A stretch of 64,000 bases of DNA from a bacterium (GCA_031401035.1 JANNRA010000127.1:4001-68000); one strand, 5' to 3'. Numbered from the stretch's first letter, positions 8,482 to 59,973 are shown. Program-made: numbers and translations. Notes: generated from the sequence alone by a model not told the origin.

Positions 8482-8572
8482 GGCGGCACTCGATCACGCC
8501 GCCGCCGTCGACTCAACGTGGTCCGCCGACGCGTATTGTGCTTGCCGACCCAGCCCTATAGGAGCCCGTCGC

Positions 8573-9220
8573 ATGGAGTTCCTCAAGGAAATTCTCGATG
8601 TGTTCCTGCACCTCGACGCGCATCTCAATGACCTCGCGGTCACCCTCGGGCCGTGGCTCTACGTCCTGCTGTTCGCGATCATTTTTTGCGAGACCGGCCT
8701 GGTGGTCATGCCCTTCCTGCCCGGCGACTCGCTGCTCTTCGCCGTCGGCGCCCTGGCGGCGATCGAGGGGTCGCCGCTGTCGCTCCCCGTCATCATCGCC
8801 GCGCTGATCGTCGCGGCGGTCCTCGGCGACGCGCTCAACTACGCCATCGGCTATCGCATCGGCCCCAGGGTGTTCACCAGCGAGACCTCGCGGCTGCTCA
8901 ACAAAGAGCACCTGGTACGTACGCAGCGCTTCTACGAGAAGTACGGCGCCAAGACGATCATCATCGCCCGCTTCATGCCCATCGTGCGCACCTTCGCTCC
9001 GTTCGTCGCCGGCATCGGCCAGATGCGCTACGCGCGCTTCGCGGCCTACAACGTCGTCGGCGGCATCGTCTGGGTCGTCTCGTTCACGGTCGCCGGCTAC
9101 GTCTTCGGCAACGTGCCGGCGGTGAAGAGCAACTTCCACTACGTGATCCTGGCGATCATCGTCCTGTCGGTGCTGCCGCCGGTCATCGAGTTCCTGCGCG
9201 CTCGGCGCGAAACCGCCTGA
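8573..9220 (+). CDS. DedA family membrane protein
   Basis: MEFLKEILDVFLHLD...FCETGLVVMPFLPGDSLLF and ARFMPIVRTFAPFVAG are typical DedA/SNARE-associated motifs. The start is set at the internal ATG 8573. Confidence 0.9.
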   Translation: MEFLKEILDVFLHLDAHLNDLAVTLGPWLYVLLFAIIFCETGLVVMPFLPGDSLLFAVGALAAIEGSPLSLPVIIAALIVAAVLGDALNYAIGYRIGPRVFTSETSRLLNKEHLVRTQRFYEKYGAKTIIIARFMPIVRTFAPFVAGIGQMRYARFAAYNVVGGIVWVVSFTVAGYVFGNVPAVKSNFHYVILAIIVLSVLPPVIEFLRARRETA

Positions 9221-14431: not shown

Positions 14432-14459
14432 GCGCGCTCCACCGTTCTCGGCGCCCGGT

Positions 14460-44896: not shown

Positions 44897-46099
44897 TCAG
44901 TGCCGTGCGTCGAAGCGCACCGACAGGCGATTCGGCGAGCGGAAGGCGAGACCGACGATGTGGCAGTCGGGCTCGCGCTCCAGGCGCAGATTGGGCAGGC
45001 GATCGAGCAGGAGATTGAGCGCGGTGCGCGTCTCGAGCAGCGCCAGGTGCGAGCCGGCGCAGAAGTGAGCGCCGAAGCCGAAGGCGAGATGGTCGTCGTT
45101 CTTGCGGTGCAGCATGAAGCGGTCGGGATCCTGGTAGTGGCGCTCGTCGCGGTTGGCCGAGCCGACAATCACCGACAGCAGGCCGCCGGCGGGGACCGCA
45201 TCGCCGCCGATGACCACGTCCTCGGTCGGCTCGCGCGAGACGAACTGCACCGGCGACTCCCAGCGCAGCGTCTCCTGGATGAGCGCGTCGATGGCACCAC
45301 GATCGGCGCGCACCTCCTCGTACACTTCGGGATGGGTCAGCAGCGCGAACAGGCAGCTGCCGGTCAGCCGATAGGTCGTCTCGGCGCCGGCCGGCAACAG
45401 CAGGCGCAGGAAGCCGAGCACTTCCTCGTCGGTCAGGCCGACGCCGTCGACCTCGGCGTGCATCAGCTTGCTGAGCAGGTCGTCTGTCGGCTCGGCCTTA
45501 CGCTGCGCCATCAGCGGCGAGAGGTAGGTGACCAGGTCCTGCGCCGCCTGGAAGCCCTTGCCGGGGTCGTCGCCGACGCTGATCAGATCGAGCGCCATCT
45601 GGTGGAAGGCGCGGTAGTCCTGCACCGGGATGCCGATGATGTGCGCCATCACCTGCATCGGAAACGTGAAGGTCACCTGCCGTACCAGGTCCGCCCGGCC
45701 GGTGGCCGCGAAGTCGTCGATGAGGCCGTTGAGGATGTCGCCGATCGTCGCCGGCATCTCCGCCTTCATCGCGCGCGGGCTGAAGAACGGCGCGATGATG
45801 TTGCGGAAGCGGACGTGCTCCTTGCCCTCCATCTCGAGGATGGTGCGCCCCATGACGAGGCCGATGCCGCGTTGGTTGGCCTTCGAGGAGTACCGCTTGC
45901 CATCCTTCAGCACCGCCTCGACGTCGGCATAGCGGGTGATCATGTAGTTGACGCCCATCATCGTATTCACCGGCAGCGCCGGGTGCTCGTCGCGCAGGCG
46001 CTTGTAGACCGGGTACGGATCGATGATGGGGCTCATCATCGTGCCACCGAAGAGCGAATTGGTCGTCGCCATGCGGGCCTCGGGAGGCGCAGTGGTCAT
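44897..46099 (-). CDS. Cytochrome P450
   Basis: Heme-binding loop FGFGAHFCAGSHLA, EXXR (ETLRW) and an AGAETT I-helix motif. 400 aa. The ATG overlaps the TetR stop (ATGA). Confidence 0.92.
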   Translation of the reverse strand: MTTAPPEARMATTNSLFGGTMMSPIIDPYPVYKRLRDEHPALPVNTMMGVNYMITRYADVEAVLKDGKRYSSKANQRGIGLVMGRTILEMEGKEHVRFRNIIAPFFSPRAMKAEMPATIGDILNGLIDDFAATGRADLVRQVTFTFPMQVMAHIIGIPVQDYRAFHQMALDLISVGDDPGKGFQAAQDLVTYLSPLMAQRKAEPTDDLLSKLMHAEVDGVGLTDEEVLGFLRLLLPAGAETTYRLTGSCLFALLTHPEVYEEVRADRGAIDALIQETLRWESPVQFVSREPTEDVVIGGDAVPAGGLLSVIVGSANRDERHYQDPDRFMLHRKNDDHLAFGFGAHFCAGSHLALLETRTALNLLLDRLPNLRLEREPDCHIVGLAFRSPNRLSVRFDARH

Positions 46100-46704
46100 C
46101 GTCGGTCCTTTCCATTCGGGCCGCGCTGCGGCCGCCGCGGCGGCGCGGTGAGCAGGCCGTAGACGGCGGTGAGGCTGGTCGCCATGCGCTCGGGGTCGGG
46201 ATCGGGGAACAGCACGGCCGAGATCATCAGCCGCGTCATCCAGTCGACCATCTGGTCGGTGCTCGCCAGCCCCTGGCGCACCGGATGAGTCTCCGCCAGC
46301 AGCGGCGCCAGGAAGGCGCCGACGGTGGCGCGCAGGACGGGGAACTGGCCGCGCAGGTAGTCGAGGACGAAGGCCGGCTCGGTCTCGATGATGCGCTGGA
46401 TGGCCGGATGCTCGCGCACGTAGCCGGTGACCTGCTGTAGGGCCGCCTCGAGCCGGCCGGCACCGGCCGGCGCGGCAGCCAACGCCGCGCTGGCGCGCTG
46501 CTGGAAACGCAGCGTCTCGAAGGCGGCGAGGTCGTTCAGCAACTCCTCGCGGTTGGGGAAGTAGCGATACAGGGTCCCGCGCGAGACGCCGGCGCTGGTA
46601 CTGACATCGCTCATGCCGAGCTTGGCCAGCCCGTGCCGCGCGATCGCCTGCATGGCGCCGTCGAGAATGCGCTCGCGCGTGCGCGTGTTCAGGTCGGCGG
46701 CCAT
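46096..46704 (-). CDS. TetR/AcrR family transcriptional regulator
   Basis: TRERILDGAMQAIARHGLAKLGMSDVSTSAGVSRGTLYRYFPNREELL is a canonical TetR HTH. The start is set at the internal ATG 46704. Confidence 0.9.
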   Translation of the reverse strand: MAADLNTRTRERILDGAMQAIARHGLAKLGMSDVSTSAGVSRGTLYRYFPNREELLNDLAAFETLRFQQRASAALAAAPAGAGRLEAALQQVTGYVREHPAIQRIIETEPAFVLDYLRGQFPVLRATVGAFLAPLLAETHPVRQGLASTDQMVDWMTRLMISAVLFPDPDPERMATSLTAVYGLLTAPPRRPQRGPNGKDRR

Positions 46705-46763
46705 TGACCGGCAGATAGAACAGACGGGGCAGGAGTTGTCTAGTTCGTTCTGGCGACTGGACC

Positions 46764-47615
46764 TCAGCGAACGACCGCGCGGCGCCAGGCCCACGCCGCG
46801 GCGACCGCCGCCGCCTGCACCACCACCGCCATCTGCCCCGGCGGGTCGTCGTAGTGGTTGGCGAGGATGAAGCCGACGACGGCGCAGACGAGGGCGATCG
46901 CCGGCGCGGCCCAGAACAGGCTGCGGCTCTCGCGGCACAGCGACGCCGCGGCGATGGCCGGCAGGACCAGATTGCCAAAGGCATAGAGCAGGCCGGTGGC
47001 GCGCATGGCGAGCCCCATGACGAGGCCGAGCCAGACGGCCAGGGCAGCGCCCCACCACGCCGGGCGCATGCCCACCGCCGCGGCCATGGCGGGGTCGAAG
47101 GCGAGCAGCAGCAGGCGGTCGCGCGTCGCCGCGACCACGACCAGGCTGACGGCGGCGAGCGCGGCAAAGGTCCACACGTCGGCGGGCGTCGCGCCGATGA
47201 TGCTCGACGAGAGCAGATGGTGGATCTCCTCGAGGCCGTGCGGGCTGTGTGCCAGCACGATGATCGCCAGACTCGACGAGGCGAGGAAGACCCAGCCAGT
47301 GGCCGCTTCGCGAGTGCCGCCGGCGCCGCCGTCGCGGGCGGTGAACAGGGCGGCGGCGATGGCGAAGAGGACGCCCACCAGCGACAGCGCGCCGTGCGCG
47401 TGGTCGCCGCGTAGCACTTCGCTGCCCAGCACCGCGCCGGCCCACATGCCGACCGCAATGCCGAGCGTCGAGGCCTGCGCCACCGCCGCGCCGATGAAGA
47501 TCTGGTTGCGCGCCACCACCAGCACGCCGACCAGCGCCAGCAGCACGGCGATCAACCAGCCGGCCAGGTAGGCGTGGTGGAACAGGGGCCACGAGGCGGC
47601 GAACTCGCCGATCAC
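46764..47615 (-). CDS. Metal ABC transporter permease (ABC-3 family, ZnuB/MntB-like)
   Basis: 283 aa with about 8-9 TM segments and an ABC-3-like pattern. There is a 4-nt overlap with the upstream ATPase gene. Confidence 0.82.
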   Translation of the reverse strand: MIGEFAASWPLFHHAYLAGWLIAVLLALVGVLVVARNQIFIGAAVAQASTLGIAVGMWAGAVLGSEVLRGDHAHGALSLVGVLFAIAAALFTARDGGAGGTREAATGWVFLASSSLAIIVLAHSPHGLEEIHHLLSSSIIGATPADVWTFAALAAVSLVVVAATRDRLLLLAFDPAMAAAVGMRPAWWGAALAVWLGLVMGLAMRATGLLYAFGNLVLPAIAAASLCRESRSLFWAAPAIALVCAVVGFILANHYDDPPGQMAVVVQAAAVAAAWAWRRAVVR

Positions 47616-48331
47616 GGCGCCTCCGTCGCGGCGTCGTCGCGCGCCAGTCGTTCGGACTGCAACAGCGTCGCGGCGGGGCCGGTCTCGACACGGCCGCCAT
47701 GGAAGTGGGCCACATGCGTGGCGTAGCGCTCGGCGAGGTGCCGGGCGTGGGTGACGAAGAGCAGCGCCGTGCCCTCCTCGCGCCGCAACCCCTGCAGCAG
47801 ATCGAGCACGCCGCGCTCGATGACGGCGTCGAGATGATTGGTCGGCTCGTCGAGCAGCAGCAGGCGCGGCCGCCGCACCAATGCCCGCGCCACCAGGGCG
47901 CGCTGCCGCTCGCCGCCCGACAGGGTCCAGTAGCTCTGCGTCTCGCGGCCGGCGAGACCGGCGTGCGCCAGCGCCCAGGCGATGCGCTCGCGGCGCGCGA
48001 CGGCGTCGACGCGCACGCCGACCAGACCGAGGCCGACGAACTCGCGCACGGTGGTCGGCAGGATGGGGTTCGGCGTGCAGCGCTGCGGGACGAAGCCGAC
48101 GGCGGCGCGGTCGCGCAGCGACGGGTGCAGCGTCAGCTGTCCGGCCAGCGGCGCCAGTTCCCCGAGGGCGGCGCGCACGAAGGTCGTCTTGCCCTCGCCG
48201 TTGCGCCCGAGCAGGAACCAGAACTCGCCGGCGCGCACGGTCAGGTCCACGTCGCGCAGCACCGGCGCACCGCCGTAGCCGAGCGAAAGTCCCTGCGCCG
48301 CCAGCAGCAGCGGTGCCTCAGGCGCGCGCAT
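47612..48331 (-). CDS. Metal ABC transporter ATP-binding protein (ZnuC-like)
   Basis: Walker A GRNGEGKTT, signature LSGGERQR, Walker B LLLLDEPTNHLD. Confidence 0.88.
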   Translation of the reverse strand: MRAPEAPLLLAAQGLSLGYGGAPVLRDVDLTVRAGEFWFLLGRNGEGKTTFVRAALGELAPLAGQLTLHPSLRDRAAVGFVPQRCTPNPILPTTVREFVGLGLVGVRVDAVARRERIAWALAHAGLAGRETQSYWTLSGGERQRALVARALVRRPRLLLLDEPTNHLDAVIERGVLDLLQGLRREEGTALLFVTHARHLAERYATHVAHFHGGRVETGPAATLLQSERLARDDAATEAP

Positions 48332-48531
48332 CGTGCCCCTCGGTCGTCCGCCGCGGAGTCACCCCGCGCGCCTCCTTCGGCCCGGATCGCGCGGGAAAAT
48401 TGCCATCTGCAACGCAGCGCGCGAATACGATCGGTGCATATTGCCAAGGGGTAGGGCGTCCTATAGCAACAACGTCAGCGTCAGGCGGCGAGAGGCGCCC
48501 GCTGCGCAGCCCAGAAAGGACGACGACCGCG

Positions 48532-48792
48532 ATGCGTGCAGACCTGAGACTCTCCGACCTCGAGCGCCGCAAGGTGCCAAGCAAGCTGATGAACGTGAAG
48601 GTGCCCGACAACGTCAGCGAGGGCATCGACCGCGTTGCTGAGGAACTCGGGTGCTCGAAGACCGCCGTGGTCATCGCCCTGCTCAACGAAGGCCTCGACG
48701 CCGCCCTGGCGACGCTGCCACCGCGCAGCGGCAAAGCGACGCCGCGCCTGCCGCGCCGCGGTCGCCCGCCCCTGCCGCTGCCGACGTCGTAA
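48532..48792 (+). CDS. Ribbon-helix-helix (CopG/Arc-like) protein
   Basis: 86 aa. KLMNVKVPDNVSEGIDRVAEELGCSKTAVVIALLNEGL fits a beta-strand plus two helices, followed by a Pro/Arg-rich tail. It is divergent from the znuC-like gene. Confidence 0.5.
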   Translation: MRADLRLSDLERRKVPSKLMNVKVPDNVSEGIDRVAEELGCSKTAVVIALLNEGLDAALATLPPRSGKATPRLPRRGRPPLPLPTS

Positions 48793-48831
48793 CGCATTCA
48801 CCACGCACGGGCACGCTGCACGCCATCGGCG

Positions 48832-49587
48832 TCAGTGGGCGTGCGGCGCCAGCAGGCCGAGTCCGGCGATCAGCGCCATGCCGAGAAAGAACGGCACGGC
48901 GAAGCGCCATTCGTGGCGGGTGTTCGACCGGTGTAGCTCGGGCATCAGGTCCGACGCGGCGATGTAGATGAACATCCCCGCCGTCGCCGCCATGAACCAC
49001 GGCAGGTGTGCCTCGATGGGCGCCTGGAAGGCGAAGCACAGCAGCGCGCCGAGCACCGCCGACAGGCCGGAGAGGAAATTAAGCAGCAGCGCCCGCGGGC
49101 GGCTGAAGCCGGAGCGAAGCAGGATGCCGAAGTCGGCGATCTCCTGCGGGATCTCATGGGCGGCGACGGCCAGCGTCGTCGTCAGGCCGAGCGCCGGGTC
49201 GACCAGAAACGTGGCGGCGATGACGATGCCGTCGATGAAATTGTGCATCGTGTCGCCGATCAGAATGAGATAGCCGGAGGCGACGGCGTGGCTGTCCTCG
49301 TGCGTGTGGAAGCCGTGCAGGAAGCGCTCGAGGAGAAAGAATCCGCCCATCGCCGCCAGCGTCGCGATGAAGAAGTTGCCCTGCGCGTGGCCGGCGCGTT
49401 CGACCGCCTCGGGCAGCAGTTCGAGGAATGTGGTGGCGAGCAGCACGCCGGCGGCGAAACTGACGAACAGCAGGGCGCGACGCTCGTTCCACTCGGTGAA
49501 GAGGAAGACGACGCCGAGCAGCGAGATGGCGCTGACCCCGAACGTGGCGGCGAGCGCCAGCGCGAACGGCGAGAACCCGTCCATCAT
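48832..49587 (-). CDS. ZIP family metal transporter (ZupT-like)
   Basis: HEIPQEIADFGILL signature, HNFIDG motif, 8 TM-like segments. Confidence 0.88.
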   Translation of the reverse strand: MMDGFSPFALALAATFGVSAISLLGVVFLFTEWNERRALLFVSFAAGVLLATTFLELLPEAVERAGHAQGNFFIATLAAMGGFFLLERFLHGFHTHEDSHAVASGYLILIGDTMHNFIDGIVIAATFLVDPALGLTTTLAVAAHEIPQEIADFGILLRSGFSRPRALLLNFLSGLSAVLGALLCFAFQAPIEAHLPWFMAATAGMFIYIAASDLMPELHRSNTRHEWRFAVPFFLGMALIAGLGLLAPHAH

Positions 49588-50540
49588 GGCCGTGGCGCCA
49601 ACAGGTTGAGGTCGATACGCGGCACCTCGCCGGGCGCCAGGAGTACCAGGCGGGCGCGCGGCAGCACCGCCTGCATGGCGTTCAGGTACAGCTCGGTGGC
49701 GGTCTGCTCGGGCGCGGCTTTTTTGCGGGCCAGCAACTCGGCATAGCGCTCGGTGGCGCCGCGCGCCTGCTGCAAGCGCGCATCGGCGCCGCCGCGCGCC
49801 TCCTGCACCAGCCGGCTGGCGTCGCCGCGCGCCAGGCTGACGGCGCGCTCGCGGCCGCTCTGTGCCTCGTTCACCGCGCGCGCCGCGTCGGCCTTGGCGT
49901 CGTTGACGTCGCGAAACGCCTGTGCCGCCTCCGGCGGCGGACTGGCGGACTGCAGGTTGATGCCGAGAAGGGAGATGCCGGCGCCGGCGCCGTCGAGGGT
50001 CGCCTGGGCGGCGCGCCGCACCTCGTTCTGGATCTGCGCCTTCCCCGACGTCAGCACATCATCGACGGGCATGGCGCCGACGGTGCGCACCACGGCCGCG
50101 CGCACCGCCTCGTCGAGCAGCAGCGTCGGATCGTCGACGGCGAACAGGTACTGCCCGAGGCGGCTGATGGTGTACTGCACCACCAGCGTCAGGTCGATGA
50201 AGTTCTCGTCACCGGTGACCAGCGCCAGCTGGCGCGAGAGGTCGTCGCCCACCTCGCGCCGCAGCACCTCGCCGGTGCGCACGCGCGTCAGTCCGTCGAC
50301 GCCCCACGGCAGGCGCGCGCCGAGACCGGGCGGCACGGCATCGTCGATCAGGCGCCCGAAGCGGCGCAGCGCCGCCGACTCGCCGTTGCCGACGACGTAG
50401 ACGGCGTCCGCCGCCGCGGCGAGCAGCGCCAGCCCGAGCAGCACCGCGCCGGCGGCGCGCGGACGCGCCGCGGCCCAGGCGGCGGCGGCGCGGATCCAGC
50501 GCACGCTCGGCGGCTGCTCAGCGCGGTGCGTCGGCGTCAT
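49584..50540 (-). CDS. SPFH/band-7 protein, HflK-like paralog
   Basis: N-terminal TM segment, then the SPFH core (LVTGDENFIDLTLVVQYTI...PPPEAAQAFRDVNDAK) and a coiled-coil tail. There is a 4-nt overlap with the ZIP gene start. Confidence 0.8.
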   Translation of the reverse strand: MTPTHRAEQPPSVRWIRAAAAWAAARPRAAGAVLLGLALLAAAADAVYVVGNGESAALRRFGRLIDDAVPPGLGARLPWGVDGLTRVRTGEVLRREVGDDLSRQLALVTGDENFIDLTLVVQYTISRLGQYLFAVDDPTLLLDEAVRAAVVRTVGAMPVDDVLTSGKAQIQNEVRRAAQATLDGAGAGISLLGINLQSASPPPEAAQAFRDVNDAKADAARAVNEAQSGRERAVSLARGDASRLVQEARGGADARLQQARGATERYAELLARKKAAPEQTATELYLNAMQAVLPRARLVLLAPGEVPRIDLNLLAPRP

Positions 50541-51414
50541 CGGGTCCCTGCAGGGCTCGCAGCAGCGGCGAGTTCGCTTCGAGGAAGATGGTGGTCTGCT
50601 GATCGATAATCTTCTCGTAGGCCTGCAACTGGCGCAGGAAGCGGAAGAAGCCGGGGTCTTCCGCGTAGGCTTCGGAGAACAGGCGCAACGCCTGTGCCTC
50701 GCCGGCGCCGCGGATGCCCTCCGCTTCGGCGCGCGCTTCGGCGAGGATGCGGTCGCGTTCGACCGTCGTCGCCGCCTTGATCTTCAGCGCCTCCTCCTCA
50801 CCCTCGCTGCGGTACTTCGTGGCGATGCGGGCGCGCTCGGCGCGCATGCGGTCGATGACGCTGGCGCGGTTCTGCGCCGGCAGGAAGACGCCGTTGATCT
50901 GCAGGTCGACGACCGCGATGCCGAAGCTGCGGCGCGCCACCGCATCGACCGCGGCGCCGACGCGCGCCGCGATCTCGGCCAACTGCACGCGACCGGGCGC
51001 GGTGCTGATAAAGGCGTCCATCGGCTCGCCGCCGACCGCCGCGCCCATCTCCGCCGCGGCGATGTCGAGCAGGCGCGCCTCGGCCTCGAGGCGCGTCTTG
51101 ACCGTCTGCGTGAACTGCAACGGATCGGCGACGCGCCAGGCGATGAAGCTGTCGAGCAGGATGTTCTTCTTGTCCGCCGTCAGCATTTCGATCGGCTCGT
51201 TGTCGAACACCAACAGGCGCGCGTCGATGCGCACCACCGTGTCGATCGGCCACGGCGCCTTGGCGTGCAGGCCGGGGCCGCGCACGCCGTCGAGCGGCCG
51301 CCCGAAGCGGGTGACGATGGCCTGCTCGCTCTGGTCGACGGTGAACAGCGCCGTCGACAACCACGCCACACCGAGCCCGGCCACCGCCATCGCCGCGCCG
51401 CGTCCAAGACCCAT
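50518..51414 (-). CDS. SPFH/band-7 protein, HflC-like
   Basis: FTVDQSEQAIVTRFGRPL..PGLHAKAPWPIDTVVRIDARL..LTADKKNILLDSFIAWRVADP is an HflC-type pattern. Its ATG overlaps the stop of the upstream fusion gene (TGATG). Confidence 0.82.
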   Translation of the reverse strand: MGLGRGAAMAVAGLGVAWLSTALFTVDQSEQAIVTRFGRPLDGVRGPGLHAKAPWPIDTVVRIDARLLVFDNEPIEMLTADKKNILLDSFIAWRVADPLQFTQTVKTRLEAEARLLDIAAAEMGAAVGGEPMDAFISTAPGRVQLAEIAARVGAAVDAVARRSFGIAVVDLQINGVFLPAQNRASVIDRMRAERARIATKYRSEGEEEALKIKAATTVERDRILAEARAEAEGIRGAGEAQALRLFSEAYAEDPGFFRFLRQLQAYEKIIDQQTTIFLEANSPLLRALQGPDDADAPR

Positions 51415-53690
51415 CAGTTCGCTCCTCGCTCGCCCGGCGGCGTCAGCGCGTCCGGCCCGGTGCCGCGCGGCGCCAGCAGCGGTGCGCCCGGCGGCGCGCT
51501 GCCGGGCGCCGCCTGCCACACCGCCACCTGACGCCCGCCGCTGCCGGCGGGCACGATCAGTTTGTCGCGCCCGGCGAGCACGCGTTCGGCGTTTTCGAGC
51601 CACAGCAGGTCGCCGAGCAGGGCCGGCGCGCCGGCGTAGGCAGCGGCCTCGGCGCTGAAGGCCTCGGCGCGGCCGCGCGCCTCGAGTTCGGCGCTGACGG
51701 CGCCGGCGTGGGCGGTGGCCCGGGTGAGCGCCGCCTGGCCGCGCGCCAGCGGGATCTCGCGCGCCTGCGCGGTGGCGGCGACGTTGATCGCCGTCTCGCG
51801 GTCCTCGCGCGCGCTCGAGACGTCGCGGAAGGCGTCCACCGCCCCCTGCGGCGGGTGCAGGTCGACCACCAGGACGACGCCGACGCGGACGCCGGCGCCG
51901 ATGCGGTCGAGGTGGGCCTGCAGACGCTCGGCCACCGCGGTCTCGAACTCGGCGCGCCCGGCGGTGAGCAGCGCGTCGAGCCGGCGCGTGGCGACGAACT
52001 CGCGCGCCGCCGTCTCGGCGTAGAGGCGCACCGAGTCGCGCTCTTTGTCGACGCCATAAAAGTAGGCTTCGGGGTCGCTGAGGTCGTACTGCACCGCGAA
52101 GCTGATCTCGACCAGGTTCTCGTCGCCGGTCAGGTAGGTCGCCGTCTGCGGGTCGCCGTTGCTCGCCGTCACCGGGCTGTGCCAGAGGTTGGCGCTGGCC
52201 AGGCGGGTGAGCTGGCGGCGGTTGGCGAAGGCCTGCAGGTCGGGCTGGAAACCGACGCTCGCCAGGCGCGGATAGCGGATGCGCCAGACATCAATGCGCC
52301 CGAGTGGCCACGGCGGCACGTAGTGCAGCCCTGGCGCCAGGTCGGGCCAGGCGAGGCGGCCGAAGAGGAATCCGAAACCGCGTGCGTCGGTGGGCACCAT
52401 GCGCACGCCGGCGGCGAGCCAGCCGAACACCACCAGCGCCGCACCGACCTGGACCGCGCGGCGCCCGGCGCGGCGCCAGCGAGCGCGGCGCGCGGCGGCG
52501 TCGGCGTCGGCCGCCAGGCCGAGCAGGCTGTCGGTGTTCTCGACCAGCTCATGCAGGCCCTGGCGCGCCGCCCCGGCCCACAGCCGCCAGGCCATCAGGC
52601 CGGCCAGGCCGGCGGCGCAGAGCCACTGCACCAAGGCGACGCCGCCGAGGCCGCCGCTGAGGGTCGCCGCGACGCGCCAGCCGGTCAACGCCAGCAGCGC
52701 ATCGAGAGCGAGTCCGCAGGCGAGCGCCCCGATGGCGATGCTGGCGACGTAGAGGCGCACGAAGCGCGGCCCGAACTCGCGCGTCAGCAGCACGATCGTC
52801 GCCGCATTGGTCCCCGGACCGGCGAGTAGGAAGACCAGCGCCGCGCCCGGGCTCATGCCTTTGGCGATCAGCGCCGCCGCCACCGGCGTGCTGGCCGAGG
52901 CGCAGATGTACAGCGGCACGCCGATGAGCAGCATGAGCAGCATCGGCGCCAGGCCGCCGCCGAGGCCCCAGGCGGCGAGATCGTCGGGAACTGCCAGGCT
53001 GATCAGCGCCGCCAGGCCGAGGCCGATGACCAGCCAGAAGACGATGTCGTCGAGCAGATCGATGAAGCCGTAGCGGAAGGCGTCGGCCGTCACCGTCTCG
53101 AACGGCCGCACGCCGACCGGCGCCGCATCCTCGGCGCCGCGGCGGCGCGGCGCCAGGTAGACGCGCAGCGCCCGCCAGAAGCCGGCGACGCCGACCACGT
53201 GCGCCTCGTCCGCCGCCTCGTCGTGGCCGTGCGGGTGCGGGGCGGCGGCGGCGGGCAGCGCGGCGGCGCGGGCCGCGTCGGGCCAGGCGATCACGGCGAT
53301 GCCGGCGACGACGGCGGTGACGAAGCTGGCGAGCGGCCGGGCCAGCGCCATGACCGGCCCGAGCATGCCGTAGGTGAGGACGATCGAGTCGACGCCGGAC
53401 TCCGGCGTGGTGATCAGGAACGAGGCGGTGGCCGGGCGGCTGGCGCCCTTGCGGCGCAGGGCCATCGCCACCGGCACGACGCCGCAACTGCAGAGCGGCA
53501 GCGGGATGCCGAAGAGCGCCGCGACGACGACGCCGAGCAGCCCCTCCTGGCCCATCCAGCGCTCGACCAGCCGCCGCGACAGCAGCACGTGCAGCAGCCC
53601 GCCGGCAAACAGGCCGAGGAGGAGGAACGGCGCCGCGACCAGGAGCACATTCCAGGTCTCCCAGAACAGCGATGTGAGGAAGGTCAGCAC
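51414..53690 (-). CDS. Fusion protein: SO_0444/ArsP-type (DUF318) metal permease N-terminal half plus a TM-anchored HflK-like SPFH domain
   Basis: The first ~330 aa (of 758) have the two-repeat permease pattern (IPLPLCSCGVVP... and PLYICASASTPVAAALIAKGMSPGAALVFLLAGPGTN) with a His-rich loop (PHPHGHDEAADEAH). The C-terminal ~350 aa carry an HflK pattern (YLTGDENLVEISFAVQYDLSDPEAYFYGV...PPQGAVDAFRDVSSARED). One uninterrupted frame. Confidence 0.8.
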   Translation of the reverse strand: MLTFLTSLFWETWNVLLVAAPFLLLGLFAGGLLHVLLSRRLVERWMGQEGLLGVVVAALFGIPLPLCSCGVVPVAMALRRKGASRPATASFLITTPESGVDSIVLTYGMLGPVMALARPLASFVTAVVAGIAVIAWPDAARAAALPAAAAPHPHGHDEAADEAHVVGVAGFWRALRVYLAPRRRGAEDAAPVGVRPFETVTADAFRYGFIDLLDDIVFWLVIGLGLAALISLAVPDDLAAWGLGGGLAPMLLMLLIGVPLYICASASTPVAAALIAKGMSPGAALVFLLAGPGTNAATIVLLTREFGPRFVRLYVASIAIGALACGLALDALLALTGWRVAATLSGGLGGVALVQWLCAAGLAGLMAWRLWAGAARQGLHELVENTDSLLGLAADADAAARRARWRRAGRRAVQVGAALVVFGWLAAGVRMVPTDARGFGFLFGRLAWPDLAPGLHYVPPWPLGRIDVWRIRYPRLASVGFQPDLQAFANRRQLTRLASANLWHSPVTASNGDPQTATYLTGDENLVEISFAVQYDLSDPEAYFYGVDKERDSVRLYAETAAREFVATRRLDALLTAGRAEFETAVAERLQAHLDRIGAGVRVGVVLVVDLHPPQGAVDAFRDVSSAREDRETAINVAATAQAREIPLARGQAALTRATAHAGAVSAELEARGRAEAFSAEAAAYAGAPALLGDLLWLENAERVLAGRDKLIVPAGSGGRQVAVWQAAPGSAPPGAPLLAPRGTGPDALTPPGERGAN

Positions 53691-53749
53691 GCAGGTTCGC
53701 TCGGCTCAATACATGGCGCGGCCCCTGGTGTCATGAGAGGGACCACGGA

Positions 53750-53861
53750 GTCCCCCATCCGGGAGCGCGGGCGGCCCGCCCGCCTCCGGAATGGAAGGCG
53801 CCGCGGAGCGGCGCCCTGCAATCCCGAGCGGGCGGGCCGCCCGCGCTCCCGGATGGGGGAC
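53750..53861. repeat. Perfect 34-bp inverted repeat with a 44-nt spacer that contains its own hairpin
   Basis: gtcccccatccgggagcgcgggcggcccgcccgc (53750-53783) is the exact reverse complement of 53828-53861. The spacer contains GGCGCCGC-gga-GCGGCGCC. It lies between the znuA-like stop and the permease-fusion start. Confidence 0.85.
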
Positions 53862-53881
53862 CTTGTCGACGGGCGCCGCCG

Positions 53882-54931
53882 TCATGGGCGGCGCAGCGCC
53901 TGCACCACCTGCTCGACATTGTAATTCACCATGGCGAGGTAGTCGTCTGTGCCGGGACGGGCGCCGACCTGGTTGGCCATGCGTGCCACGCGCGCGCCGG
54001 TCTCGGCGGCGACGAAGTCGGCGTGGCGCGGATCATAGTAGGCATTGGCGAGGATCAGCCGCACGGCGTCCGCCTGCATCATGGTCAGCAACTCCTGCAG
54101 GTGCCGCGTCGTCGGCGGCACGCCCGGCTTGGGCTCGAGATGGCCGACGATGACCAGGCCGAAGCGGCGCGCGAAGTAGGCCCACATTGGATGGTCATCG
54201 ACGGCCTTGGTGCCGAAGTACGGCGCCATGGCGCCAAGCCAGCCGCCGAGCAGAGCCGCATCACCCTGTTGCGCCAGGAAGGGCAGCAGCTTGCCGTACT
54301 CGAAGAGGGTCGCGATCTTCTCGGCGTCGTACTTGCGCGCCAGGGCGGTGCCGACCAGCGCATCGTTGAGGCGGGCACGAAACTCCTCGTAGCGCTGCGC
54401 GAAGGCCCCGGCACTCTCCGGCCGCAGGGCGGCGAGCCGGTCGCGCAAGAGCGCGGCGACGCGCAGACCGTTGAGGGGATCGAGCAGATAGTGCGGACTG
54501 CCGAACGGGTGTACGTCGCCCATGGCGCGATCGATCTGGCCGACCGGCACGTCCAGCGGCGTGATGGCCAGCGACGCGTCGACGAAGCCGGCCTGGCCCG
54601 TCAGGATGCGCGAGTTACGCGCGCCCTGCAGTAACAGCGGGGCGTAGCCGGCCTCCAGTTCGAGGCCGTTCTGAACGTACAGATCTGCGACGCTCATCGC
54701 CTTGACGAAGCTCGGCTTGACCTCGACGAAGTGGGGATCTTCTCCCGCGTTGGCGAGTACGGTCACGGCGACTGCATCGCCGCCGACCGCCTGCACCAGG
54801 CTACCCAGATCGGGCAGGGACGCAACGACGCGCAGCGGCTCGGCGGCGGCGCGGTGAGAGGGATAGGACACGATGGCGGCCAGCAGGACCAGCGGCGCCG
54901 CGACGGAATGCCTCAGCGATTCGTTCCACAT
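53882..54931 (-). CDS. Metal ABC transporter substrate-binding protein (ZnuA/TroA-like)
   Basis: It has a signal peptide. LRVVASLPDLGSLVQAVGGDAVAVTVLANAGEDPHFVEVKPS is the typical cluster-9 SBP N-lobe, and it also has DVHPFGSPHY. Confidence 0.82.
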   Translation of the reverse strand: MWNESLRHSVAAPLVLLAAIVSYPSHRAAAEPLRVVASLPDLGSLVQAVGGDAVAVTVLANAGEDPHFVEVKPSFVKAMSVADLYVQNGLELEAGYAPLLLQGARNSRILTGQAGFVDASLAITPLDVPVGQIDRAMGDVHPFGSPHYLLDPLNGLRVAALLRDRLAALRPESAGAFAQRYEEFRARLNDALVGTALARKYDAEKIATLFEYGKLLPFLAQQGDAALLGGWLGAMAPYFGTKAVDDHPMWAYFARRFGLVIVGHLEPKPGVPPTTRHLQELLTMMQADAVRLILANAYYDPRHADFVAAETGARVARMANQVGARPGTDDYLAMVNYNVEQVVQALRRP

Positions 54932-54942
54932 GGAGGATCACC

Positions 54943-56520
54943 TCAGTACTTGTGCGCGGGATGCGAGCCGTAGAGAACTTCGACGCCGAGCCAGACGCTG
55001 TTCGCGCTCGGATCGCCGGGTAGGAACGGCGTGTTGTCATAGTTGTACTGGAGGCGGATGCGGGAAAACTCGGACGGTTGGTAGACGAGCAACGGCGACA
55101 GACGCCAGCGGTCGGCGCGGAAGGGATCGTTGCGCCGGCTGACCAGTTCGCCGTCCTCGACGCTCTGGCCGTGGCCTGAGGCGTACTCCAGTCGCAACGC
55201 CGCTGCCCAGGGGTGCGCAAAGCCCCACAGCACCTGCGAGTAGAATCCGGCATCGCGCAGGATGTCGCCAGGCAGGTCGTTGGGGAACTCTCCCGGCTCG
55301 TCGGTCCCGCCGTCGCCGTGCGCCGGTGCGCCACCGGCGGCGACCTCTCCCGCCGCGCTCGAGGCGACGAACGGGTCGGCGGTGTAGGCGCGGCTGAGCA
55401 CCTCGCTCTGCCAGACGACGAAGGGCCAGCCGCGGAAGTTCTGCAGCGGGCGCCATTTGAACGTCAGGTCGGTCCCGTAGATGTATGTCGAGGCATCGGC
55501 TCCGGTGGAGTTGGCCCCGTACAGCCCTGAGACGCCGACCAGGGCGCTGAGTTCGGACGAAAGATCCCAGGCGTTGGCCCAGCGGGCCAGGTAGAGAAAG
55601 TCACTCAGATTGCTGACCGTGTCGGTCACGGCTGGGCGGCCGCCGATGCCGCCGTCGGCGTCGAGGAAACTCGGCGTCAGCTCGCCCTCGTCGGCATCCT
55701 GCATGCCGACGCTGAGCTGAGAAAACCACGGCAGCGGCGCCAGCCAACTCACCTCGACGCCGGGCGAGCGCAGGCCCTCCGAACCGAGCAGTCGCGTGAT
55801 GACAAAGGGCTGGTCGAGGTAGGTCCAGGCATGCGCGTGCGTCGGGTTGATGCGGCCGAAGTCGGTGAGGAAGTAGCCGCCCTTCACCTGCAGGTCCCAC
55901 GGCAGCGCGGTGGTGACGACGAACGCCTCCTCGAGTTCCACCGAGCTGTCGGTGAAGATGACGTGCGCCTCGCCGAAGAAATACGGGTCGACCGCGCCGG
56001 CAAGCGACAACTCGCCCTGCTGCAGCGTGAAGCCGCGCCGATTGGGGTCGTGCGCCCCGCCCTGCAGATCGCGCAGCGTCTGCCCGCCGACGGTGGACGA
56101 ACCCGCGGCGGTGAGGATGTCGAACGAGACATCGATCAGCCGCAACTCCGCCCCACCGATGCGGGTCGACAGCAGACTGGGCCGCGCCGAGGCGGCGCCG
56201 AGGCCCGCCGGATCGGCGACGTCGGTCGGCGGGCGCACCTCGGCCAGGGCTCTGTCTATCGCCTGCTCAGCGTTCGGCGTCGGCGCCGCCGCCGCCGCCG
56301 GCACCGCGGCGGTTGGCGCGGCGACCCGTTCGAGCCGTTGCTGTAACTGCTGGATCTGCTGTTGCTGCTCGGCGTTCTGCTCGATGAGCTGTTGCATCTG
56401 GCGCTTGAGCGTTTCGAGCTCGGCGGCCGTGTCGGCGCGCGCCGGCGCGCCGACGGCGACCCCGGCGAGCAGCGCCAGCGCGGCGAACGGCGAGCGTCGC
56501 CTGTGCTGCGATGGAATCAT
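54943..56520 (-). CDS. Putative outer-membrane porin with an N-terminal Gln-rich coiled coil
   Basis: Signal peptide (FAALALLAGVAVGAPARA), coiled coil ELETLKRQMQQLIEQNAEQQQQIQQLQQRLE, a beta-rich body and a C-terminal ..VEVLYGSHPAHKY. It lies 11 nt upstream of the znuA-like gene. Confidence 0.6.
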   Translation of the reverse strand: MIPSQHRRRSPFAALALLAGVAVGAPARADTAAELETLKRQMQQLIEQNAEQQQQIQQLQQRLERVAAPTAAVPAAAAAPTPNAEQAIDRALAEVRPPTDVADPAGLGAASARPSLLSTRIGGAELRLIDVSFDILTAAGSSTVGGQTLRDLQGGAHDPNRRGFTLQQGELSLAGAVDPYFFGEAHVIFTDSSVELEEAFVVTTALPWDLQVKGGYFLTDFGRINPTHAHAWTYLDQPFVITRLLGSEGLRSPGVEVSWLAPLPWFSQLSVGMQDADEGELTPSFLDADGGIGGRPAVTDTVSNLSDFLYLARWANAWDLSSELSALVGVSGLYGANSTGADASTYIYGTDLTFKWRPLQNFRGWPFVVWQSEVLSRAYTADPFVASSAAGEVAAGGAPAHGDGGTDEPGEFPNDLPGDILRDAGFYSQVLWGFAHPWAAALRLEYASGHGQSVEDGELVSRRNDPFRADRWRLSPLLVYQPSEFSRIRLQYNYDNTPFLPGDPSANSVWLGVEVLYGSHPAHKY

Positions 56521-56630
56521 TCCCCTCGTCTCCTCGACTGCGTGCGCGCGCCACAGCCGCGCTACACGGCTGGCGTCGCGACCACGGGGTCGCGCCGCGC
56601 GGATCGACCAGTTACGGACGGATCGGCTGT

Positions 56631-57002
56631 CTAGGCGAGGCGACAGGGCGGCGCGCGCGGCGCTGCCTCGGCGTGCGCGGCGGCGCGCGCGGACTGGGCA
56701 GACGGCGCCGCCGGTGCAGGGCCCGCACAGGGCGGCGTATCGGGAGTGGCGGCGGCACTGCCGACGCCGTGATGTGCCGCGGCGAGCGCGGCGCACAGGG
56801 TGCAGGTTCCGCCATCGTGCGGCGCCGCCCGCGACGCCGCGTCGTGCCACCCATCGGCGCCCGTTGCGAACGCCGCGTCGGCGCAGGCCACCGGCACCCC
56901 GGCATGCACCACATGCAGCGTTGGCACTAACATCTGCACGGCGAATGCGGCCATGCAGAGAAGGCGGGCCAGGAGGCCAGGGGCTCGGATGGTGCCGCTC
57001 AT
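56631..57002 (-). CDS. Hypothetical His/Cys-containing small protein (DUF2946-like?)
   Basis: N-terminal hydrophobic segment LLARLLCMAAFAVQMLVPTLHVVHA, plus CTLC and several His residues. It sits upstream of the porin. The family assignment is weak. Confidence 0.3.
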   Translation of the reverse strand: MSGTIRAPGLLARLLCMAAFAVQMLVPTLHVVHAGVPVACADAAFATGADGWHDAASRAAPHDGGTCTLCAALAAAHHGVGSAAATPDTPPCAGPAPAAPSAQSARAAAHAEAAPRAPPCRLA

Positions 57003-57259
57003 TGGAACCTGCCAGCTACCAGAGCGAGATATCCCAACGCAACGACGGGGCTGACGAAGGGAGCTACGCGGTCAGCGTCTCATCATCCGCCGCGATGGCG
57101 TTCCCACCCGACACATTGCGGCCGTCACCGCGTCGCGGAAGGCGTCTTGGGCAGCGGCACGGTTCACGGAGAGGGACGCAGCGCCCAAGAGCATCGTTGC
57201 AACGGACCGCTTTCCGCCAGCAGAAGGTGACCGGTCTCGGGAACTCCGCTGACCGCGAC

Positions 57260-58435
57260 TCACGCCGGGCAGCCGCCCAGGGCCGCGTTGACGGCCTGGA
57301 TGAGCTGGCTGATCATCGGCGGCTCGCCGCCCGGCGAGAGCGCCGGGCACTGCGCCGCGGGCACGCTGCCGGCGGCGATGTTGACGCCGAGCAGCAGCTC
57401 GTTGATCGCCACCATGCCATCGCCGTTGCAGTCGCCGACGCAGGGTGTCGGCGGCGGCGGCTCCTCGACCACCACCGCGCCGTCCTCGGCCAGCACCAAC
57501 AGCTCTTCCCCGAGTGGACCGCTGGCGCCGACTTGCGAGGCCGCGACCGGATAGGTGCCGGGCGCGGCGGCGGCGGCGATGGCGACGTCGCAGGAGAACA
57601 GGATCGCTCCGTCAGGGAGCGGATCGGCGCTGAGCAGCGACAGGACGAAGGCGCGTACGCCGCTGCAGTCGACTCCAGGCATGCAGCCAATCGGCAGATA
57701 GCCGAAGGTGGTTGCCTCCTTGCCGATCGCGGCGTTCACCACGCAGGCCGGCCGGCCGGCGGCGCCGCTCGCCAGCGGCGTCGCGGGGTCGAAGGCGAGG
57801 TCGATCTGGACGCCGGCGACAACGGCGTCGGCGAGCAGGTCGATGCTGACCGGCACCGCGACGACATCCGCGGCCGCGCCGGTCGCGCGGCCCACCCGCA
57901 AGCGCGCCGCGGGCGCCGCCGGCAGCACCTCGACGGCGCCGTCGCTGCCGTCGCTCGCCACCAGCACGCCGCCGGCCGCCGCGGCGCCCTGCTCGCTGTT
58001 GAGCAGCGGATAGGTTGCGGGCGCCGCGTCGGCGGCCAGGGCGACCGCGCAGGTGTAGAGTACCGCGCCGTCGGCGATCGGGTCGAGGTTGTCGAAGGCG
58101 AGCACGAACACACGCACGCCGCTGCAGTCCGCGGCGGGATCGCAGCCGAGCGGCAGGAAGCGGAAGCCGGTGGCGCCCTTGTCGATGGCCGGGTTGACCG
58201 CGCAGTCGGGCTCGCCGTCGGCGCGCGCGGCGATGAACGCGGCGCGACCGAAATCGATGCGGTTCTGCGTCGCCACGACGGTCCCGCTCGGGTCCGCCAG
58301 GGTCACCGCCACGGCGACCCTGGCGCCGGCCGGCCCGGCCGCCGCGCCGATGTCGATCGACGCGGCGCGCGCCGCCGCCGCCGCCAGCAGCATGCCCACA
58401 CCAAGCAGAATGGCCGTCACTCCGAACCGTCGCAT
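57260..58435 (-). CDS. Secreted protein with two tandem cohesin-like domains and a C-terminal dockerin-like module
   Basis: It has a signal peptide. Two roughly 150-aa repeats share (D/A)CAVNPAIDKGATGFRFLPLGC..ADCSGVRVFVL and ACVVNAAIGKEATTFGYLPIGC..VDCSGVRAFVL. The C-terminus is CVGDCNGDGMVAINELLLGVNIA. The start is set at ATG 58435. Confidence 0.65.
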   Translation of the reverse strand: MRRFGVTAILLGVGMLLAAAAARAASIDIGAAAGPAGARVAVAVTLADPSGTVVATQNRIDFGRAAFIAARADGEPDCAVNPAIDKGATGFRFLPLGCDPAADCSGVRVFVLAFDNLDPIADGAVLYTCAVALAADAAPATYPLLNSEQGAAAAGGVLVASDGSDGAVEVLPAAPAARLRVGRATGAAADVVAVPVSIDLLADAVVAGVQIDLAFDPATPLASGAAGRPACVVNAAIGKEATTFGYLPIGCMPGVDCSGVRAFVLSLLSADPLPDGAILFSCDVAIAAAAAPGTYPVAASQVGASGPLGEELLVLAEDGAVVVEEPPPPTPCVGDCNGDGMVAINELLLGVNIAAGSVPAAQCPALSPGGEPPMISQLIQAVNAALGGCPA

Positions 58436-58572
58436 GGGCGGCTGTCTAGCACACGTCCCGCTGTCGCGCCCGCGCGACTTTGCGCCCGTGCCCCGCCGGC
58501 CCCCGCCCAATAGACACCTCCTGCAGTATATGACAGTGCGCATAGCTTCATGCCTGTCGAGGAGGAGAGCCC

Positions 58573-59973
58573 ATGCCGCAGTCGATGCTGATCAACGGCG
58601 CACTGGTCGACACGCTCGAACGAGACGACGTCGTCAACCCCGCCACCGGTGCGCCGTTCGCCACCTGTCCCCGCGCCGGCGCTGCGCATGTCGACGCGGC
58701 CGTCGCCGCGGCGGCGCGCGCCTATCCGACCTGGCGGCGCGACGCCGCGGCGCGGCGCGCCACGCTGCAGGCCTGCGCGGCGGCGCTGCAAGAACGCGTC
58801 GGCGATATTGCGCCGTTGCTGGTGCAGGAACAGGGCAAGCCGCTGCCGGCAGCGATGGCCGAGGTGTTCGGCGCGGCGCTGTGGTTCAGCTACTTCGCCG
58901 GCCTCGAGGTGGGGCCCGAGGTGCTGCAGGACGACGGCGACAAGCACATCCAGATCGTCCGCAAGCCCCTCGGCGTCGTCGCCGCGATCACGCCGTGGAA
59001 CTTCCCCATCGTCCTGCTCTCGTGGAAGCTCGCGCCGGCCCTCCTGGCCGGCAACACCGTCGTCGCCAAGCCGTCCGAGTTCACGCCGCTCAGCACCCTG
59101 CTGCTCGGCGAGGTGCTGCGCGAGGTGGTGCCGCCAGGGGTCCTCAACATCCTCGCTGGACCGGGCAGCGTCGGCGCGCTGCTCTCGGCGCACCCGGCGG
59201 TGCGCAAGGTCTCGTTCACCGGCAGCGTCGCCACCGGCAAGAAGATCATGCAGGCGGCGGCAAGCGACCTCAAACGCGTCACCCTCGAGCTCGGCGGCAA
59301 CGACCCGGCGATCGTGCTCGACGACGTCGACCCCGCCGCCGTGCTCGACGGCCTCTTCTGGGGCGCCTTCACCAACTCCGGCCAGGTGTGCACGGCGATC
59401 AAGCGCCTCTATGTGCACGAGTCGGTGTACGCGCCGATCGTCGACGGGCTCGTCGATCGGGCCAACAGCGTCAAGGTCGGCGACGGGCTCGACCCCGACA
59501 CGCAGCTCGGTCCGATCAACAACAAGATGCAGTTCGACAAGGTCGTCGATCTGGTCGAGGACGCCCGGCGGCACGGCGGCCGCGTCGTCGCCGGCGGTAC
59601 GCCGCTGGCGCGCCCCGGCTATTTCCTGCCGCCGACCATCGTCACCGACGTCGGCGCCGGCATCCGCCTGGTCGACGAGGAACAGTTCGGCACGGCCCTG
59701 CCGATCATCAAGTACCGCAACCTCGACGACGTCCTCAGCGAGGCCAACCAGACCCACTTCGGCCTCGGCGCCTCGGTGTGGAGCGGCGACGTGGCGCGCG
59801 GCGAGCGCGTCGTGCAGGAGCTCGAGTCCGGCACCGGCTGGGTGAACCAGCACATGGACATCCTCCCCAACGCACCCTTCGGCGGCTGCAAATGGAGCGG
59901 CCTCGGCGCGGAGAACGGCCACTGGGGCTATGAGGAGTTCACCGAGATGCAGGTGGTGAACGCCAAGCGCTAG
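58573..59973 (+). CDS. NAD(P)-dependent aldehyde dehydrogenase
   Basis: ITPWNFP, the catalytic Glu in ELGGNDPAIV, the catalytic Cys in FTNSGQVCTAIKR, and EEQFGTALP. Confidence 0.92.
   Translation: MPQSMLINGALVDTLERDDVVNPATGAPFATCPRAGAAHVDAAVAAAARAYPTWRRDAAARRATLQACAAALQERVGDIAPLLVQEQGKPLPAAMAEVFGAALWFSYFAGLEVGPEVLQDDGDKHIQIVRKPLGVVAAITPWNFPIVLLSWKLAPALLAGNTVVAKPSEFTPLSTLLLGEVLREVVPPGVLNILAGPGSVGALLSAHPAVRKVSFTGSVATGKKIMQAAASDLKRVTLELGGNDPAIVLDDVDPAAVLDGLFWGAFTNSGQVCTAIKRLYVHESVYAPIVDGLVDRANSVKVGDGLDPDTQLGPINNKMQFDKVVDLVEDARRHGGRVVAGGTPLARPGYFLPPTIVTDVGAGIRLVDEEQFGTALPIIKYRNLDDVLSEANQTHFGLGASVWSGDVARGERVVQELESGTGWVNQHMDILPNAPFGGCKWSGLGAENGHWGYEEFTEMQVVNAKR

Follow-up and report, generated by a model that had tools for sequence, protein, structure and literature searches.

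We describe a bacterial gene in which a metal permease and an HflK-like SPFH subunit form a single polypeptide, together with the small set of genes that accompanies it. The gene lies in a stretch of 64,000 nucleotides (nt) of bacterial DNA (GCA_031401035.1 JANNRA010000127.1:4001-68000; G+C content about 72%), here called the window, where an uninterrupted open reading frame (ORF) of 758 residues on the minus strand (51414-53690), termed Kf below, joins an SO_0444/ArsP_1-type permease to an HflK-like SPFH domain and is followed by an HflC-like gene and by a second, unfused HflK-like gene, termed K2. Our analysis confirms that the fusion is genuine and recurs in many phyla, that it is made of known parts, and that it extends more widely than was first seen.

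A complete permease joined to an HflK-like subunit

An initial annotation of the window had proposed that two domains share one frame, and profile searches bear this out: within the 758-residue protein Pfam finds ArsP_1 at residues 15-329 (E 3.8e-39, 135 bits against a gathering threshold of 32.3) and Band_7 at residues 499-639 (E 2.5e-14). The NCBIfam model for SO_0444 Cu/Zn efflux proteins, NF033936, scores 357 bits over residues 13-367 and covers model positions 2-348 of 351, a match above the curated cutoff of 300 that marks the N-terminal half as a complete SO_0444-type permease. This domain, at residues 1-372 (52575-53690, minus strand), consists of two homologous halves with matching motifs (PLPLCSCGVVPVA and PLYICASASTPVA). 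The CSC and CASAS motifs and the His-rich loop that had been reported are all present in the translation, with CSC, described as a signature motif of the SO_0444-type family (10.1101/2022.07.06.499078), at residues 67-69 (53484-53492) in the first half, CASASTP at residues 263-269 (52884-52904) in the second, and the His-rich, K/R-rich central loop AAPHPHGHDEAADEAH at residues 149-165 (53196-53246) between the two. Across 116 fusion proteins C67, S68, C69, C263, T268 and P269 are invariant, and the repeat-2 counterpart C263-A-S-A-S-T-P is invariant or nearly so throughout. The permease half has no sequence match in the PDB. Such proteins are currently named by annotation pipelines as 'SO_0444 family Cu/Zn efflux transporter' or 'YraQ/HflC' only.

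For the C-terminal half the best PDB matches, by sequence and by fold, are chains of E. coli HflK (7vhq_E, 9cz2, 9paw, 7wi3), and all 47 Foldseek matches at E <= 1e-3 are SPFH proteins. Kf aligns with E. coli HflK over residues 76-127 of the latter, which form the membrane anchor, and over residues 147-362, which form the SPFH domain and coiled coil. The hflK model TIGR01933 reaches 134.7 bits over residues 513-715 of the fusion, under its equivalog cutoff of 159.4, and the HflK_N domain (PF12221), which canonical HflK relatives have, was not found by Pfam in either Kf or K2. What stands of the earlier 'HflK-type' label is therefore the fold and the alignment, whereas the score falls short of HflK proper: by its sequence relationships the fused SPFH domain forms a clade of its own, so that filing it simply as HflK is unwarranted.

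The two parts meet in a junction at residues 373-434 (52389-52574, minus strand). An AlphaFold2 model (mean predicted local distance difference test score, pLDDT, 85.9; predicted template modelling score, pTM, 0.64; 116 homologs as input) places helices at residues 352-391 and 398-426 around this point, which suggests a tether in the form of a short helical hairpin instead of a lengthy, flexible linker. In the model the last permease helix would extend into the cytoplasm, turn, and return through an arginine-rich stretch as an HflK-type anchor. The loop at residues 369-410 holds eight K/R residues, and G373, G428 and P433 in the junction are conserved in the fusion alignment. From the positive-inside rule and the homology to HflK, the SPFH and coiled-coil domain that follows (residues 435-705 by alignment; 51576-52388, minus strand) is predicted to face the periplasm.

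The fusion is genuine and widespread

The need for a check on a frameshift across the junction had been raised at the outset, and such an artefact is excluded by three observations. From codon 321 to codon 480, a span that includes the junction, the G+C content at third codon positions (GC3) of the one frame remains between 0.85 and 1.00. The eight proteins that make up a cluster at 98% identity, drawn from independent NCBI, ENA, Logan and JGI contigs, are all 758 residues long. Finally, at least 115 clusters (at the 90% identity level) carry both Pfam domains, in proteins of 685-907 residues that are 41-98% identical to the query, with source labels that include Deltaproteobacteria, Acidobacteriota, Thermoanaerobaculia and Eisenbacteria. 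Species-representative genomes, scanned with the motifs of the permease half only and with all counts to be read as lower bounds, gave further carriers in Zixiibacteriota, Tectimicrobiota, Phycisphaerae, Burkholderiales, an alphaproteobacterial metagenome-assembled genome (MAG) and the cultured Bradyrhizobium erythrophlei GAS478. The architecture is thus no rarity and is widespread across many phyla.

One related contig (L089) has its permease and SPFH parts in different frames, as would be expected if an assembly or frameshift error elsewhere had joined two ordinary genes, but its name, 'np1212', suggests a nanopore assembly, where insertion and deletion errors are common, and in the face of the continuous GC3, the same product in eight assemblies, the two-domain clusters and the conserved junction residues we give the artefact practically no chance. 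The same contig offered the sole candidate (P0135) for a truly split form with separate permease and Kf genes, which we rejected, its permease half being out of frame in what the name suggests to be a nanopore assembly.

A different arrangement is seen in the alphaproteobacterial MAG, where the permease and the K and HflC-like subunits occupy a single ORF of 1071 residues (L012, 8001-11216). If real, its topology would be inconsistent, with the HflC anchor placed after a periplasmic C-terminus, and a lost stop codon or an assembly error may account for it.

A conserved set of three genes

Kf is followed in the window, on the same strand, by the gene for an HflC-like SPFH subunit of 298 residues (50518-51414, minus strand), which scores 184 bits on TIGR01932 against a cutoff of 134.4 and matches Band_7 at E 8e-25. 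Then comes K2, of 318 residues (49584-50540, minus strand; 184.4 bits on TIGR01933 against a cutoff of 159.4), and after it a ZIP-family metal transporter of 251 residues (48832-49587, minus strand; 152 bits on Pfam Zip, PF02535, against 35.1), which scores 82 bits on the ZupT equivalog against a cutoff of 252 and is thus a ZIP member that is not assignable to ZupT. The overlapping junctions that had been described for these downstream genes are all seen: the stop of the fusion and the start of the HflC-like gene share TGATG, the end of the HflC-like gene overlaps K2, with its ATG at 50540, by 23 nt, and the K2 stop and the ZIP start form ATGA, a 4-nt overlap.

To follow these genes beyond the window, ORFs were called in all fetched loci and searched with the window proteins. 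The order Kf, HflC-like, HflK-like is found, directly adjacent, in all 21 distinct loci with an ArsP-type fusion, which cover at least 10 phylum- or class-level labels and include Bradyrhizobium erythrophlei GAS478 (locus L010). Among 68 loci with a stand-alone SO_0444-type permease, none has an SPFH gene within 8 kb. As gene order indicates, the conserved core is the set of three genes: fusion, HflC-like and HflK-like. The ZIP gene, which had been taken for a partner in the operon, holds that place directly after the three-gene set only in the window and in L091 and L092, which are most closely related to it; it lies nearby in L011 and L018 and falls outside the universal core. Pfam finds no NfeD domain among the window genes or the listed neighbours of the fusion loci.

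Some loci have additional genes close to the set. An extra HflC-like gene stands 1-2 kb upstream of the fusion in L010 (5773-7900), L011 and L012, that is in Bradyrhizobium, Burkholderiales and alphaproteobacterial loci, and in L010 a gene of the acetamidase/formamidase family lies between it and the fusion. In L092 a MerC-family gene is found just upstream of the module (8413-8850), and in L091 a separate CDF gene follows the ZIP gene (13953-14915), so that more metal transporters cluster around the module.

The same set with other transporter families

Further searches were made with the SPFH half of the fusion, with the junction region against 1.84 billion representative proteins, and with the SPFH half of a P-type ATPase fusion. 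They brought up fusions in which the transporter belongs to other families. In the CDF fusions (P0145-P0147, P0165, P0167, P0206, P0213, P0454 and P0468) a Cation_efflux membrane domain at residues 9-193 is present without the usual cytoplasmic C-terminal domain. A similar picture emerges for the P1B-type ATPases, where the fusion P0331 scores 550 bits on TIGR01525 and has the CPC motif and no HMA domain, which is missing from both of the full-length P1B fusions scanned (P0331 and P0338). That the C-terminal domain is missing from the fused CDF proteins, and the HMA domain from the fused P1B ATPases, fits a scheme in which regulation has been handed to the SPFH part. About 50 clusters pair a P-type ATPase hydrolase domain with Band_7, most of them being fragments from short contigs.

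In the loci that were fetched these fusions too are followed by two Band_7 genes, of 293 and 319 residues after a CDF fusion in L087 (P0147; L087/L088), of 290 and 306 residues after a P1B fusion in L090 (P0331), and of 323 and 258 residues after a P1B fusion in L093 (P0461, a Gemmatales genome). There is also a further fused class (P0276, P0289, P0299 and P0283), with proteins of 550-610 residues that consist of a multi-pass N-terminus of about 300 residues and an HflK-like domain. That N-terminus gave no family match, and these fusions may be a fourth client class.

The fused SPFH domains share features of their own. Between the 'VGF' strand and the 'TGDEN' motif Kf has a clade-specific insertion of about 35 residues (52143-52259) with a conserved Trp, and both W503-H504 within it (52179-52184) and H612-P-P further on (51849-51857) are invariant in the 116 ArsP-type fusions. 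Across the classes the insertion occurs in the Trp-containing variants LWHSP, LWESRH, EWNTQH and LWTAPH. The insertion and the 'VHPP' His are common to most aligned fusions, namely those with ArsP, P1B and the unassigned N-terminus (P0276, P0299) and one of two with CDF, the other CDF fusion, P0146, lacking the pair; neither feature is seen in K2, in the HflC-like protein or in canonical HflK. Moreover, the SPFH half of the P1B fusion matches CDF-fused and ArsP-fused proteins ahead of canonical HflK. Taken together these similarities point to one fused-K lineage in which the transporter was exchanged. A neighbour-joining tree of SPFH domains sets the HflC-like proteins cleanly apart and is too crude to tell a single origin of the fusion from several; as evidence for a common fused-K clade we prefer the match ranking and the shared insertion.

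Association with zinc uptake genes

Zinc-uptake-type genes (ZnuA, ZnuB, ZIP or FUR-family) lie within 8 kb at 11 of the 21 fusion loci compared to 3 of the 68 stand-alone loci (Fisher p = 2.4e-6, a value that is optimistic since the loci are phylogenetically non-independent). Considering ZnuA alone, the counts within 8 kb are 7 of 21 and 0 of 68. In the window the gene directly upstream of the fusion encodes a ZnuA-type metal-binding protein of an ABC importer (53882-54931, minus strand; 142 bits on Pfam ZnuA), whose best NCBIfam match is the zinc protein AztC, under that model's cutoff. Downstream, on the same strand as the fusion operon and as a separate unit, Pfam identifies a ZnuC-like ATPase (47612-48331, minus strand) and a ZnuB-like ABC-3 permease (46764-47615, minus strand).

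Other loci give variations on this arrangement. For instance, the order in L086 is ZnuA-ZnuC-ZnuB-fusion, and the ZnuB stop overlaps the fusion start by 4 nt, while in L085 an ABC/FtsX/DUF3299 set, the three-gene module and FUR-ZnuA-ZnuC-ZnuB all lie on one strand. In L092 the module and the ZIP gene stand beside a divergent FUR gene, genes for the ribosomal proteins L28, S18 and L33, and a COG0523/CobW-type GTPase. To judge by what is established about Zur regulons, this is the gene make-up of a classic zinc-starvation island. Genes for TonB-dependent receptors stand upstream in both L002 and L005, and L089 has a related one.

An exact palindrome, TTGCATATGCAA, occurs once each in L085 (12493-12504) and L092 (14366-14377), immediately beside the FUR-family gene, and is a candidate Zur box for these two lineages. 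A second, similar site lies 5 nt downstream of the L085 palindrome. The FUR proteins score under both the Zur and the Fur equivalog cutoffs. We also considered the palindrome as a Zur box for the fusion operon and rejected it, TTGCATATGCAA being confined to the immediate vicinity of the FUR genes in these two loci.

A possible mechanism and its alternatives

The reading that we favour, with moderate confidence, is that a heteromeric SPFH ring serves as a dedicated scaffold and controller of a tethered metal exporter, within zinc homeostasis. As homologues of E. coli HflK and HflC, the three SPFH proteins would assemble into one heteromeric HflK/C-type ring in the inner membrane, with the permease and its cysteine-lined pathway held right against the ring wall by the short cytoplasmic hairpin. 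The HflC-like protein and the unfused K2 would complete the ring, K2 probably spacing out the bulky fused subunits. In rough geometric terms, the E. coli cage ring is about 16-20 nm across, and twelve 10-helix permeases would not fit inside it; an unfused K paralog is thus perhaps needed as a spacer, because a permease at every K position could not be accommodated. The ring would hold the transporter in a platform of high molecular weight and control its stability or activity, possibly with periplasmic metal being sensed through the clade-specific insertion (W503-H504) and H612. The transporter itself would export Zn(II) or competing thiophilic metals such as Cu or Cd. The SO_0444, CDF and P1B families are, by family knowledge and annotation, exporters of soft transition metals from cytoplasm to periplasm, and a shared SPFH partner across the three most simply means a shared direction. 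A role of the module in zinc homeostasis is suggested because it is embedded among ZnuA, ZnuCB and ZIP genes in the window genome, where it might, as a guess, balance or proof-read metal from low-selectivity uptake and be in flow equilibrium with the adjoining importers. The earlier suggestion, of a microdomain or a device for quality control of metal flux, gains weight as a hypothesis from the strict SPFH linkage and from the recurrence with CDF and P1B.

Several points weigh against a scaffolded exporter in zinc homeostasis, in addition to the dependence among loci that affects the Fisher test. Co-location with high-affinity zinc importers, which in L086 extends to translational coupling, is odd for an exporter and fits an importer equally well. 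The palindrome TTGCATATGCAA is not upstream of any fusion operon, and is absent at the window operon when up to two mismatches are allowed. No zinc-uptake neighbours were seen in the CDF and P1B loci examined. Lastly, the SPFH assembly, the transport of zinc and its direction are all inferred.

The first of these points leads to an alternative in which the fused clade takes up zinc during zinc starvation, in parallel with ZnuABC and ZIP, with the SPFH ring gating or stabilising it. It would account for the enrichment of ZnuABC, ZIP and FUR genes at the fusion loci and not at stand-alone SO_0444 loci, for the overlap of the module with ZnuB in L086, and for the setting of the module in the zinc-starvation island of L092; moreover, to our knowledge the direction of transport in the SO_0444 family has never been measured biochemically. 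However, Kf passes the NCBIfam equivalog for an efflux family, and a transcriptomic study found one stand-alone member induced by excess of Cd and Cu (PMC10092412). The sister fusions also use CDF and P1B transporters, exporters by family knowledge, and a direction shared by all is simpler. We therefore consider an importer unlikely.

A second alternative takes the SPFH trio as modulators of FtsH, with the tether presenting the transporter to the protease or shielding it from it. In its favour, the equivalog models for HflC and HflK are passed by the HflC-like protein and K2, complexes of FtsH with HflK/C come nearest among the solved structures, and fast removal of a transporter upon a change in metal supply would be useful to the cell. 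Yet ftsH is found in none of the loci with called genes listed by Pfam domains, Kf itself lies under the HflK cutoff and has no HflK_N, and a degraded client would drag its ring subunit along. Bradyrhizobium species also encode a canonical HflK (P0222), and the module of L010 is probably an extra, paralogous set and not the housekeeping pair. An FtsH-directed quality-control device thus appears distinctly unlikely.

Other possibilities centre on what the SPFH proteins might enclose. In one, which we regard as quite improbable, the fusions make up a family of client-specific cages, in which a dome of Kf, HflC-like protein and K2 over permease, CDF or P1B pumps built into its wall would act in the periplasm as a gated store of metal or as a compartment for metallation, with the His and Trp residues of the clade as its read-out. 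Such a sealed chamber, if true, would for the first time give a bacterial SPFH cage a client other than a protease and a chemical cargo, both of them defined. In the plainer form an SPFH dome would seal a small volume of the periplasm over the exporters, where metal is not lost but stored, buffered or passed to periplasmic clients. That three mechanistically unrelated exporters have the same partner would then mean that the partner handles what emerges in the periplasm, and the periplasmic domain does contain clade-specific invariant His residues; E. coli HflK/C forms a closed dome, and PDB entry titles include a variant stabilised in the closed conformation. On the other side, the chamber is wholly inferential, the metal site is a putative one only, and open 'nautilus' assemblies of HflK/C exist (9cz2), which leaves it a slender chance.

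Other features of the window

The spacer of about 190-195 nt between znuA and the fusion contains a perfect inverted repeat of 34 nt (53750-53861, no strand assigned), with arms at 53750-53783 and 53828-53861 that lie 44 nt apart. The repeat occurs as a single copy in the window and has no T-run, and the spacer has a predicted RNA fold of -149 kcal/mol (z = -9.8). It may be a repetitive extragenic palindromic (REP)-type element that stabilises the mRNA of the upstream binding protein or damps read-through. A search of the spacers for riboswitches and known RNAs gave no Rfam match at E <= 1 in 46000-59000, and promoter and terminator scans gave none above the shuffled background.

Directly upstream of znuA is a gene for a secreted protein of 525 residues (54943-56520, minus strand) with a signal peptide and a coiled-coil N-terminus, probably located in the outer membrane, for which no Pfam or NCBIfam family match was found. 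Upstream of it in turn lies a small DUF2946-like ORF (56631-57002, minus strand), with a full-length but sub-threshold match (E 0.021), and the two may work as a pair in metal uptake at the outer membrane. Beyond the upstream end of the metal cluster a second secreted protein, of 427 residues (57260-58543, minus strand), has a weak cohesin-domain match and, by eye, a dockerin-like C-terminal motif, and is probably unrelated to the fusion operon. On the plus strand an ORF of 86 residues (48532-48792) is convergent with the ZIP gene and divergent from znuC. It has, by eye, the look of a ribbon-helix-helix regulator (KLMNVKVPDNVSEGIDRVAEELGCSKTAVVIALLNEGL), with no significant Pfam match, and the 200-nt promoter region that it shares with znuC contains two TGGCAAT repeats.

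Discussion

Among characterised systems the three SPFH subunits resemble most directly the E. coli HflK/HflC-FtsH complex (7VHP, 7WI3, 9CZ2, 9PAW), with which they have in common an N-terminal anchor, a periplasmic SPFH domain (here predicted), long coiled coils and adjacent K and C genes. They differ from it in having three paralogs in the order K, C, K instead of two, in the fusion of the first K to a 10-helix metal permease, and in the insertion of about 35 residues with its invariant W-H in Kf, where a His also replaces the Arg, Asp or Asn before PP. HflK_N is lacking, no ftsH or hfq-hflX genes are nearby, and the gene context is one of metal transport. With respect to the SO_0444/ArsP family (TC 2.A.119), the permease is full length, scores above the cutoff and keeps the CSC signature, whereas the stand-alone members have no SPFH neighbours (0 of 68) and it is the fused clade that stands beside zinc-uptake genes.

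The closest functional analogue is found in the 'metal efflux platforms' or 'effluxosomes' of PacL1/CtpC in M. tuberculosis, where a scaffold encoded next to a metal exporter is needed for its stability and forms platforms of high molecular weight (PMC9374683). PacL, a small DUF1490 protein, lies on the cytoplasmic side, is not fused to the P1B zinc exporter it stabilises and does not depend on flotillin (PMC9374683, PMC13043812); nor is it related to SPFH proteins, while the link described here is covalent. A similar example is eukaryotic stomatin, which, by the title of PDB entry 9ZD2 (aquaporin-1 and human stomatin), is likewise an SPFH oligomer bound to a channel client, though there the association is non-covalent and the SPFH domain belongs to a cytoplasmic homo-oligomer, compared to a gene fusion with an SPFH domain predicted to be periplasmic. 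The SPFH-NfeD operons (E. coli QmcA-YbbJ, PDB 8Z5G) also give an SPFH protein a dedicated partner from the same operon, but NfeD is absent here and the partners are further SPFH paralogs and a transporter.

The belief that the architecture was undescribed agrees with what we found in the searchable full-text literature, where queries for SPFH, HflK or Band 7 with SO_0444, ArsP, CDF, P-type ATPase, permease or zinc returned no description of the fusion, and with bacterial SPFH reviews and surveys (PMC2636767, PMC13086221), which do not mention transporter fusions.

The function and the clients of bacterial SPFH cages are a long-standing question, with hardly any well-defined client besides FtsH. 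As comparative evidence for physical partnership a gene fusion is strong, and the occurrence of the same SPFH trio on three unrelated families of metal transporter identifies a class of clients and, with metal homeostasis, a theme in physiology. The finding also raises the question of why a family annotated for Cu/Zn efflux is wired into zinc-uptake islands. Names such as 'SO_0444 family Cu/Zn efflux transporter', 'HflK protein' and 'Cu+-exporting ATPase' hide a conserved composite system, for which a cultured carrier exists in Bradyrhizobium erythrophlei GAS478 (locus L010), and which may be an SPFH-based counterpart of the mycobacterial 'effluxosome'.

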